DNA from: a plasmid
DNA: 64,000 nucleotides
Assembly (NCBI RefSeq): GCF_053078305.1
Contig: NZ_CP166875.1
Strand: one strand, 5' to 3'
Below the pieces are notes generated by a model, which was not told where the DNA came from, searched no databases, and was given only the letters and a program-made list of their open reading frames with translations. The position numbers and the translations under genes were made by a program. Positions 602 through 2,045 of this stretch are shown in pieces; the stretch's first letter is position 1; the number at the start of each line of letters is the position of its first letter.

Positions 602-1192
602 TTACGGGGTGATGCTTTCATTAACCTGCACACGAACCTCCATTCCTGCATCGTGACAGGCCTGCAGCCACTGCGCCACTTCCAGCGGATCGCCCTCCCG
701 GCGTACCACCCTGCCTTCTCTGTTCCATAACTGCAGACAGGTGCTGCCGTCGAGACGTACCACAAAATCCCCACGGCAGGCCTGATACGTTATGCCGTTC
801 AGCTGCACCGCCAGATCAGTGGCAGAAGTGCCGTCTGCGGGCAGACCTGCTGCCGGGATCAGCGGCAGTACGACGACTTCTGCCGCACGCTGTTCTGCCC
901 GGAGGCGGTCCTGTTCTGCCAGCAGCAGAGGCTGTGCCACGGCCCGGCCGGCGTCCGTCAGCTCCACTGCCAGCTGCAGGTTCGGAGCGCGCAGGGTACG
1001 CAGCCAGCCGGCATCCTCCAGACGACGGCAGGAGGCGCGCAGGTTTGGCCCGTAGACCGGGGCTTCCCCGCTTCGCTCCAGCACCCGTTCTATGTCCCGC
1101 GTCAGCACGGGGCCTGGCCGTTTTTCATCAAGGGCAGCCAGCACAATCAGCACTCTCCGCTGCAGTGGCGACGGTCGGCGGCTCTGGGTCAT
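602..1192 (-). CDS. Hypothetical protein, 196 aa, possible N-terminal winged-helix DNA-binding domain
   Basis: Long ORF in GC-rich DNA; start codon overlaps stop of upstream 85-aa ORF (ATGA at 1189-1192), implying translational coupling. Confidence 0.6.
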   Translation of the reverse strand: MTQSRRPSPLQRRVLIVLAALDEKRPGPVLTRDIERVLERSGEAPVYGPNLRASCRRLEDAGWLRTLRAPNLQLAVELTDAGRAVAQPLLLAEQDRLRAEQRAAEVVVLPLIPAAGLPADGTSATDLAVQLNGITYQACRGDFVVRLDGSTCLQLWNREGRVVRREGDPLEVAQWLQACHDAGMEVRVQVNESITP

Positions 1193-1449
1193 TACCAGTC
1201 ATCCTCCGGCCAGATGAGGTTTCTGAGGCGCTGAAAGTCGGCGTCAATGAGCTCCTGTCTCTTTATGGCATTCATTGAGGCATAGCCATTTATGGCCAGT
1301 TCATGCCAGAAGATCAGCACGGCTCCAGCTTTGGCTGACTCGCAGAGATAAATCGCGCCCTGGCTGTCCAGATTGCATTCCCGGATGCGTTTTTCCGCAA
1401 ACCGGGTCAGTTGTTCATAACTGAGTGAAAACACCCTTTCTTCATCCAT
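1192..1449 (-). CDS. Hypothetical protein, 85 aa, first gene of a two-gene operon
   Basis: ORF with overlapping stop/start to the downstream 196-aa ORF; AT-rich promoter-like region with palindromes lies immediately upstream (1450-1610). Confidence 0.55.
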   Translation of the reverse strand: MDEERVFSLSYEQLTRFAEKRIRECNLDSQGAIYLCESAKAGAVLIFWHELAINGYASMNAIKRQELIDADFQRLRNLIWPEDDW

Positions 1450-1524
1450 CCTGCGCGCTCCATCTGATAATGTTCTGACAGGTAAAAATCAAATTCTATA
1501 TGATTTTTGTGTTATCGATTTATG

Positions 1525-1670
1525 ATAATATCAGATATTGTTTCATTACTTATGATTGAAGTCATATCTGATATGAATTTATGTGTGTTACTTAATTATC
1601 ATATCCCCTGCCCGTTTCCCGCCGCGCAGATCCGGTTTCCGGCTTTCCCGCCGCGCAGATCCGGTTTCCG
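1525..1670. promoter_or_regulatory. Putative promoter/operator region: inverted repeat ATATCAGATAT/ATATCTGATAT and a tandem about 30-bp direct repeat (cccgccgcgcagatccggtttccggct x2)
   Basis: Direct reading of the sequence between the divergent 85-aa operon and the resD module. Confidence 0.4.
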
Positions 1671-2045
1671 GCTGTTCAGGATCTTCCTCTCCCCCCACAC
1701 AACGCCACCTCCCGTCATCACAACATGTGGTGCCGGATTCAGCTGCTGATGACACTATATGTTGTGTCATCTCCCTGACCTGTGATGCGTCGCGCAGGGG
1801 CGGAAAACAGCGATATGATGATTTCCTCAGCGTGGTACACTTCCGGAAAGTTGTGATATTCCGGAAAGTCGGATCTGACGGAAACGGCTCTCCGGTAATT
1901 TAACGGCGTGGTTATATGGATGCTTGTTATCATGGTGATGATGATAACGGCATGATGTTATCAGACGGCGTGACGGTAAGGGCAGTGATGATGGATGACG
2001 TTATCGCATGACCGTCCCTGCCCGGAAAAGAAAAAGGAGTCACCC

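Follow-up and report, generated by a model that had tools for sequence, protein, structure and literature searches.

Near one end of a 64,000-nucleotide stretch of plasmid DNA (NCBI RefSeq assembly GCF_053078305.1, contig NZ_CP166875.1; the whole stretch is referred to here as the window) lie two minus-strand genes, ydfA and ydeA, which we interpret, at a probability of about 0.55, as a regulatory cassette of Enterobacterales plasmids, made up of two genes under autorepression and often placed at the head of operons with variable cargo. Established directly were the gene structure, the predicted folds, purifying selection on both genes, and both the location and the conservation of the sites upstream of ydfA. 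As a winged-helix repressor operon that regulates itself, the system would be of an ordinary type; the family itself is uncharacterised and has no domain model.

To characterize the control region, the 250 bp upstream of ydfA were aligned from approximately 20 non-redundant loci in which YdfA is 35–85% identical to that of the window. The ~190 bp preceding ydfA displayed one fixed layout across these divergent Enterobacterales loci, including three 17-bp palindromes of consensus ATCATA-N5-TATGAT (half-sites starting at -129/-118, -93/-82 and -56/-45 from the ATG; putative operators O1 to O3, Table 1) whose centres are 36–37 bp apart, or approximately 3.5 helical turns. Exact half-sites (TATGAT/ATCATA) were present at the same positions in all 20 loci, with 4.65 per 140 bp observed against 0.25 expected from composition (approximately 19-fold); in the window alone the enrichment was modest (6 palindrome matches, 2.05 expected), and additional TATGAT hexamers were present at 1521–1526 and 1551–1556. 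The non-coding 190 bp were 61–85% identical between lineages compared with approximately 55% for the ydfA coding sequence, where the synonymous substitution rate (dS) is saturated, and the control region is thus more conserved than the gene it precedes. In an IncI-gamma/K1 relative (L012; L numbers denote individual loci) a sigma-70-like promoter, TTGATG-16-TATTAT, was found with its -10 on the ydfA-proximal half-site of O2, a placement in agreement with the start site predicted by BProm 69 nt before the start codon in the IncI1 plasmid pUA1135 (PMC12111858). The predicted layout places O1 upstream of the -35, O2 over the -10 and O3 in the transcribed leader, downstream of the predicted transcription start, and on that reading the three putative operators would occupy the positions of classic tight repression.

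The AlphaFold2 (AF2) model of YdeA was confident (predicted local distance difference test score, pLDDT, 87) and contained a winged-helix domain followed by a long helix, a linker and, at the C-terminus, a domain rich in beta strands. No protein segment of the cassette is better conserved than the DNA-binding domain, with 68–100% identity between lineages, and the long helix of the model may mediate dimerisation. In-frame deletions in the linker account for natural alleles ranging from 169 to 196 amino acids, and longer relatives of 303–428 amino acids carry a further C-terminal extension of 100–230 amino acids. A profile of the C-terminal domain retrieved only YdeA proteins from 5.8 billion sequences and had no match in PDB. 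When the whole model was used for a fold search of AFDB50, the best 50 matches consisted of YdeA-family or uncharacterised proteins and a single 102-amino-acid 'MarR family' entry, whilst PDB returned generic winged helices only. YdfA is mildly acidic and fast-diverging relative to YdeA, its identity falling to 35–50% where the YdeA N-terminal domain stays near 80%; an N-terminal FSLSY motif (F7-S8-L9-x-Y11) is nonetheless invariant across the family, and fold searches with the YdfA model returned designed or generic helical bundles only. Pairwise ratios of non-synonymous to synonymous rates (dN/dS) of 0.2–0.6 indicated purifying selection on both genes, and positive selection on ydfA was considered and rejected, the pairwise ratio being below 1 everywhere.

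The two genes are joined by a single shared base, TAATG at 1190–1194, in which the stop codon of ydfA meets the start codon of ydeA. ATGA or GTGA overlaps also occur at this junction in relatives, a stop/start overlap or near-abutment being kept throughout, and the genes are translationally coupled. An earlier note, made from the letters of the window alone, had described a two-gene pair of 85 and 196 amino acids with a palindromic AT-rich upstream region beside a transposon end. That description holds in everything but the size of the overlap, given there as 4 nt and in fact 1 nt; the winged-helix domain it expected in the larger protein was borne out by the AF2 model (residues 9–78), and the two upstream palindromes it had picked out, ATATCAGATAT and ATATCTGATAT, are the cores of O2 and O1, respectively.

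These features suggest a mechanism in which YdeA, probably a dimer held together by its long helix, would place its winged helices on the three palindromes that straddle the ydfA promoter at 36–37 bp spacing, and would thereby repress ydfA, ydeA and any downstream genes on the same strand. YdfA would be produced in fixed proportion through translational coupling and could modulate YdeA as a co-repressor or anti-repressor by way of its invariant FSLSY motif.

Several observations count against this interpretation. Binding of the palindromes by YdeA and the resulting repression are argued from co-conservation, that is, because the DNA-binding domain and the putative sites are both conserved. In the window itself each operator is degenerate, departing from the consensus at 1–3 positions, and a promoter scan found no minus-strand promoter for ydfA; the sole sigma-70-like promoter recovered by a simple scan of the region (CTGACA-18-TATGAT, 1475–1504, plus strand, 10/12 matches) runs away from ydfA through the operators. 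A divergent or antisense transcript may arise there, TATGAT being similar to a -10 hexamer whichever way it is read. Furthermore, 190 bp of fixed-spacing DNA and an element with two GATC sites are not obviously needed by a simple autorepressor, so the region may do more than regulate. In the window and in IncF relatives the gene that follows ydeA is a convergent DUF6404 gene, with no same-strand cargo, and therefore control of cargo is not applicable locally. Independent recombination of ydfA and ydeA gives no hint of a tightly co-evolving protein pair, and the role of YdfA in the switch is a guess, the predicted three-helix fold being uninformative.

Table 1. Coordinates in the window of the ydfA-ydeA cassette, its predicted protein domains, its putative control elements and the adjacent transposon end.
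Feature	Position	Strand	Remarks
ydfA, 85 aa	1449..1192	minus	Open reading frame; predicted three-helix bundle; invariant N-terminal F7-S8-L9-x-Y11
ydeA, 196 aa	1192..602	minus	Open reading frame; two-domain putative repressor; AF2 pLDDT 87; dN/dS 0.2–0.5
YdeA winged-helix DNA-binding domain, residues 9–78	959..1168	minus	Most conserved protein part of the cassette
YdeA long helix, residues 80–104	881..955	minus	AF2 model; candidate dimerisation element
YdeA variable linker, residues 105–125	818..880	minus	Natural-allele alignment; pLDDT dips to 56
YdeA C-terminal beta-rich domain, residues 127–190	623..814	minus	AF2 model: five strands, helix, strand
Leader and ribosome-binding site, sense strand ATCAGATGGAGCGCGCAGG-ATG	1450..1470	minus	Nearly invariant in 23 loci
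Putative operator O3, ATCAAATTCTATATGAT	1488..1504		1 mismatch to consensus; centre 47 bp upstream of ATG
Putative operator O2, degenerate, core ATATCAGATAT at 1528–1538	1525..1541		From alignment; positions -93/-82
Putative operator O1, core ATATCTGATAT at 1564–1574	1561..1577		36 bp from O2
Lone conserved half-site, GATATGATAAT box on sense strand	1598..1603		At about -154/-155; invariant ATATGAT column block
Distal GC-rich element, (A)GATCC-N15-CGGATCTGCGCGGCGGGAAAC	1606..1686		Carries Dam GATC sites
Tn3-family terminal inverted repeat, 38 bp	355–392		Outside cassette; truncates DUF6404 gene

The distal GC-rich element has the family consensus GATCCG-N14-CGGATCT (the CGGATCTGCGCGGCGGGAAAC region) with two GATC sites, and its CGGATCT lies 184–187 bp from the ATG in 19 of the 20 loci. 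Sequence beyond it differs in every lineage, and the element therefore marks the outer edge of the conserved cassette. In the window a 29-bp core is present in perfect tandem (1615–1643 and 1644–1672), which accounts for the tandem repeat of about 30 bp remarked on in the earlier note; most plasmids carry the core singly and match the window over 29 bp less. The tandem arrangement arose by duplication, within one lineage, of an element present once in relatives. The closest relative (L001, 9075–9104) also has two tandem copies, but these differ, the distal being of IncI type (GGCAGAAAAG) and the proximal of IncF type; the identity of the copies in the window therefore suggests gene conversion or a separate duplication. 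A dispersed recombination site was considered as a reading of this element and rejected, since the element was only ever found with the cassette and none stood apart from it in approximately 400 kb examined. RNA structure was likewise not convincing, given the weak RNAalifold consensus (-3.7 kcal/mol), a six-pair hairpin that was 76% paired and whose covariation was equalled by 23 of 500 shuffles, and a search of Rfam without match. As a possible regulon member, a palindrome at 42709–42725 (ATCATCAGATGTATGAT, one mismatch to consensus) was set aside, being within chance expectation for 64 kb and in an uninformative context; it overlaps the start of a 63-amino-acid open reading frame (ORF).

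For the same pairs of loci the dS values of ydfA and ydeA were discordant (0.81 versus 0.07, 0.06 versus 0.43 and 1.78 versus 0.09), and this discordance indicates that the two genes have been reshuffled by recurrent recombination close to or at their junction. The discordant pairs involved window positions 602–1449 and loci L012, L014, L029 and L032.

To establish family membership, both proteins were searched against sequence and profile collections. In public sources they are named YdfA and YdeA, systematic names used on F-like and IncI1-type plasmids, or are otherwise 'hypothetical', and neither had a significant match in Pfam, NCBIfam, PADLOC or the PDB sequences; the profile-based homology search proposed in the earlier note thus produced no named family, as its author's failure to name one had foreshadowed. 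The best Pfam score, between YdeA residues 18–68 and the winged helix of the AbiEi (AbiEi_4) antitoxin, was sub-threshold (E 0.057), and the single match in PHROGs was of the YdeA N-terminal domain to phrog_19460, which has no assigned function there. Twenty-three relatives and the query gave no Pfam or NCBIfam match, MarR, HxlR and PadR profiles included, and Pfam found no WYL domain in YdeA or its relatives. Only 220 proteins at E <= 0.001 were recovered among 1.84 billion representative proteins, so the family is narrow, and it is locally very abundant. Of the 72,556 plasmids catalogued in PLSDB, 4262 contained the cassette DNA of the window, 4257 encoded relatives of YdfA and at least 5000 encoded relatives of YdeA, the last figure being a lower bound. 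The pair was carried by 2094 of 5426 complete E. coli genomes (approximately 39%), with 2839 of the 2869 E. coli copies on plasmids. It was essentially absent from phages, and in a collection of one genome per species it was confined to Enterobacterales save for a few evidently contaminated contigs of metagenome-assembled genomes.

Transcription of both genes has been recorded in pS88 and pBIC1a, and among the papers searched none gave ydfA-ydeA a function. A genome-wide association study of IncK2 plasmids from 2026 (PMC12987596) takes a plasmid-borne ydeA to be the L-arabinose exporter of the chromosome; judged by its plasmid context this is probably a collision of names with the plasmid YdeA, which would have misled that interpretation. 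EC958_A0140, a maintenance gene of pEC958 identified by transposon-directed insertion-site sequencing, was considered as a relative and rejected, the 40 kb of pEC958 examined containing neither ydfA nor ydeA.

The proposal that the cassette often heads cargo operons draws on its contexts in other plasmids. In pUA1135, reverse transcription PCR placed ydfA, ydeA, ibfA and proQ/finO on one transcript, ibfA being an abortive infection gene (PMC12111858), and it is in this one IncI1 plasmid that co-transcription of cargo is established. Mutants of pUA1135 lacking either ibfA alone or the entire operon were obtained, and phage plating was restored in both (PMC12111858). Elsewhere the same-strand genes after ydeA vary by lineage and include a DUF6884 protein (PADLOC DpdC models, E 7e-41) with an SNase nuclease, often translationally coupled; a 350-amino-acid protein with ProQ/FinO; and a 'DNA-binding protein' of approximately 164 amino acids, sometimes accompanied by an Hha-domain gene, together with others of no assigned function. 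Ten downstream cargo proteins had no match in NCBIfam or PADLOC, and the 164-amino-acid protein had none in Pfam or PDB. Divergent upstream neighbours vary likewise, comprising a RES NAD+ phosphorylase, a HEPN nuclease, arsR or, in the window, a 137-amino-acid/integrase pair. Three cassettes, all with a complete control region and with different genes behind them, were found on one 80-kb Klebsiella plasmid, the K. pneumoniae IncFIA plasmid CP128712.1 (L040, 28232–30440; L041, 7807–9909 and 33316–34721). Downstream of each, a 'DNA-binding protein' of approximately 164–185 amino acids without Pfam match is encoded, accompanied in one case by an Hha-domain gene; genes for a RES NAD+ phosphorylase and a HEPN nuclease are among those on the divergent side. 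At L002 (5744–8407), and also at L019, L022 and L026, ydfA is followed by an extended YdeA of 400–420 amino acids, a DUF6884/DpdC-like protein and an SNase-family nuclease, mostly with overlapping stop and start codons; this long operon may represent a unit for DNA modification or defence that has yet to be characterised.

The two genes are not always found together. A ydfA gene persists beside a ydeA destroyed by IS26 at L015, where ydfA is intact, and at H77; ydeA homologues without ydfA were present at L005, L008, L024 and L038, and truncated or frameshifted ydeA alleles are common in nature. In Edwardsiella hoshinae (L024, 3718–5612) an unrelated 85-amino-acid ORF replaces ydfA ahead of ydeA, and a gene for a ParA-like ATPase, one for a 100-amino-acid protein and TCTTGTTA repeats lie directly before it; an 84-amino-acid protein similar to the replacement is encoded downstream of ydeA at L033.

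The earlier note had left open an addiction-type module as an alternative to a regulatory one. The autoregulated character that it proposed is consistent with the winged helix, the conserved palindromes over the predicted promoter and the coupling of the genes; the addiction part finds no support. A type II toxin-antitoxin module, in which a toxic product would be neutralised by its partner and the operon autorepressed by that partner, resembles the cassette in being a small overlapping plasmid gene pair with an operator of autoregulatory appearance, and the sub-threshold AbiEi match lies in the same direction. That match is below significance, however, and the pair encodes no AbiEii-like nucleotidyltransferase; no toxin or antitoxin family was matched in Pfam, NCBIfam, PADLOC or the PDB sequences, and the fold of YdfA is generic. 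The addiction reading is disfavoured chiefly because each gene occurs intact without the other, many ydeA alleles being disrupted, and because a deletion of the whole operon was obtained in pUA1135 (PMC12111858), and we regard it as very improbable. The same whole-operon deletion, obtained and used in phage assays (PMC12111858), also speaks against a role in plasmid maintenance, in which the 190-bp array would be a centromere-like or pairing site coated by YdeA for positioning without an NTPase, with autoregulation as a by-product. A cis-acting repeated site does lie beside the operon, in the form of three palindromes and extra half-sites, but these are palindromes 3.5 helical turns apart rather than direct iterons, and the pair, consisting of an 85-amino-acid helical protein and a winged-helix protein, includes no ParA, ParM or TubZ NTPase. 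Up to three cassettes, moreover, occur on a plasmid equipped with ParM and ParA/ParB systems of its own, and natural plasmids have often lost or truncated ydeA, which makes a role in partition unlikely.

An anti-defence operon of acr-aca type, with YdfA as a small effector, anti-defence or host-modulating, made in a burst and YdeA as the dedicated repressor that afterwards shuts off a strong promoter, is given somewhat more weight than either of these. It fits a small, fast-diverging first gene ahead of a conserved helix-turn-helix (HTH) gene with inverted repeats over the promoter, the relative rates of the two proteins (35–50% identity for YdfA, approximately 80% for the YdeA N-terminal domain), the reshuffling of the genes by recombination and the many defence and toxin genes nearby (ibfA, RES, HEPN, DpdC-like and SNase). 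Unlike the unrelated acr genes that precede aca, however, the first gene here is in every case a homologue from the same family, its N-terminus being invariant, and pairwise dN/dS estimates of 0.2–0.6 gave no positive selection. YdeA homologues exist without any ydfA, the cassettes lie at least 20 kb from the ArdA/antirestriction cluster in the one plasmid showing both, and no anti-defence family was matched, PADLOC consisting of defence models only. We consider this explanation doubtful and retain the autorepressed regulatory cassette as the preferred one.

In the window the cassette is bounded on the ydeA side by a remnant of the DUF6404 gene (393–584), convergent to ydeA and cut to its last 63 codons by insertion of a Tn3-family element whose end lies approximately 210 bp past the 3' end of ydeA; the 3' end of a transposase gene (1–359) adjoins the terminal inverted repeat. 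Identity with an uninterrupted relative, plasmid NZ_CP045714.1, starts at position 395 of the window. On the divergent side are a 137-amino-acid ORF (2046–2459) and, abutting it, a 260-amino-acid tyrosine recombinase (2461–3243), followed by genes for colicin M and its immunity protein. Between the cassette and the 137-amino-acid ORF, TTCCGGAAAGT occurs twice (1841 and 1859) and an inverted repeat, possibly the site of the recombinase, is present at 1719–1766. An integrase 4–5 kb from the cassette was also observed in IncI-gamma (L012) and Klebsiella IncFIA (L040) plasmids. The colicin M and immunity genes lie within 3300–7000, their annotation being taken from a near-identical relative, and the same interval contains a 520-amino-acid ORF which, from its size and pore-forming C-terminus, is a candidate for colicin B. 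If so, the colicin genes would be pColBM-type cargo beside the cassette.

The cassette is of interest as a pair that is highly abundant on plasmids of clinical importance and yet has not so much as a DUF number; on IncF, IncI and Klebsiella plasmids conferring resistance or virulence it adjoins or precedes genes for defence, toxins and RNA chaperones. Should YdeA be a switch for these accessory operons, the expression of plasmid cargo would have a shared point of control, which might extend to phage defence and, through FopA, to copy number. What is new here is a defined candidate operator, ATCATA-N5-TATGAT in three copies, together with a conserved distal element. As a more speculative possibility, and one that we put forward only tentatively, the pair may have, throughout the plasmids of Enterobacterales, the dedicated task of licensing the expression of cargo and defence islands (ibfA, DpdC-like/SNase, Hha-type and FopA) as a switch of two proteins, YdeA holding them off through a phased three-operator complex until released by YdfA or by a signal at its C-terminal domain, with the Dam-site element tying the switch to the entry or replication (hemimethylation) state of the plasmid.

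YdeA was compared with several known systems. The fold of its model is that of MarR, HxlR and PadR regulators, and conserved palindromes overlap the predicted -10, as would be expected of a MarR-type operator at its own promoter if YdeA binds there. YdeA differs from these in falling outside their sequence profiles, in adding a family-specific beta-rich C-terminal domain, extended by 100–230 amino acids in some relatives, in having three phased putative operators and a GC-rich distal element, and in having, at most loci, an obligate small partner gene upstream. Acr-Aca operons share the gene order, the variable first gene before a conserved regulator and the promoter inverted repeats, whereas ydfA is always of the same family and YdeA has no Aca family match. 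StbA of R388 and Par of pSK1, which serve plasmid segregation independently of an NTPase, are HTH-type proteins with a coiled-coil-like helix that bind repeated sites upstream of their own operons, in which they resemble YdeA, and a structural similarity of YdeA to the centromere binder TubR was measured in the PDB fold search; in contrast to all three, the YdeA sites are palindromes rather than direct repeats, several cassettes may occupy one plasmid and the genes are often inactivated. Finally, BrxR and CapW, of winged HTH-WYL architecture, and the CapH/CapP pair have no detectable counterpart in YdeA of their WYL or protease domains, and the cargo of the cassette is not always defence-related. 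YdeA nevertheless shares with them a winged helix joined to a C-terminal putative sensor domain and a location upstream of defence genes, the placement of ydeA before ibfA in IncI1 plasmids and before DpdC-like and nuclease genes elsewhere being similar to that of BrxR and CapW.

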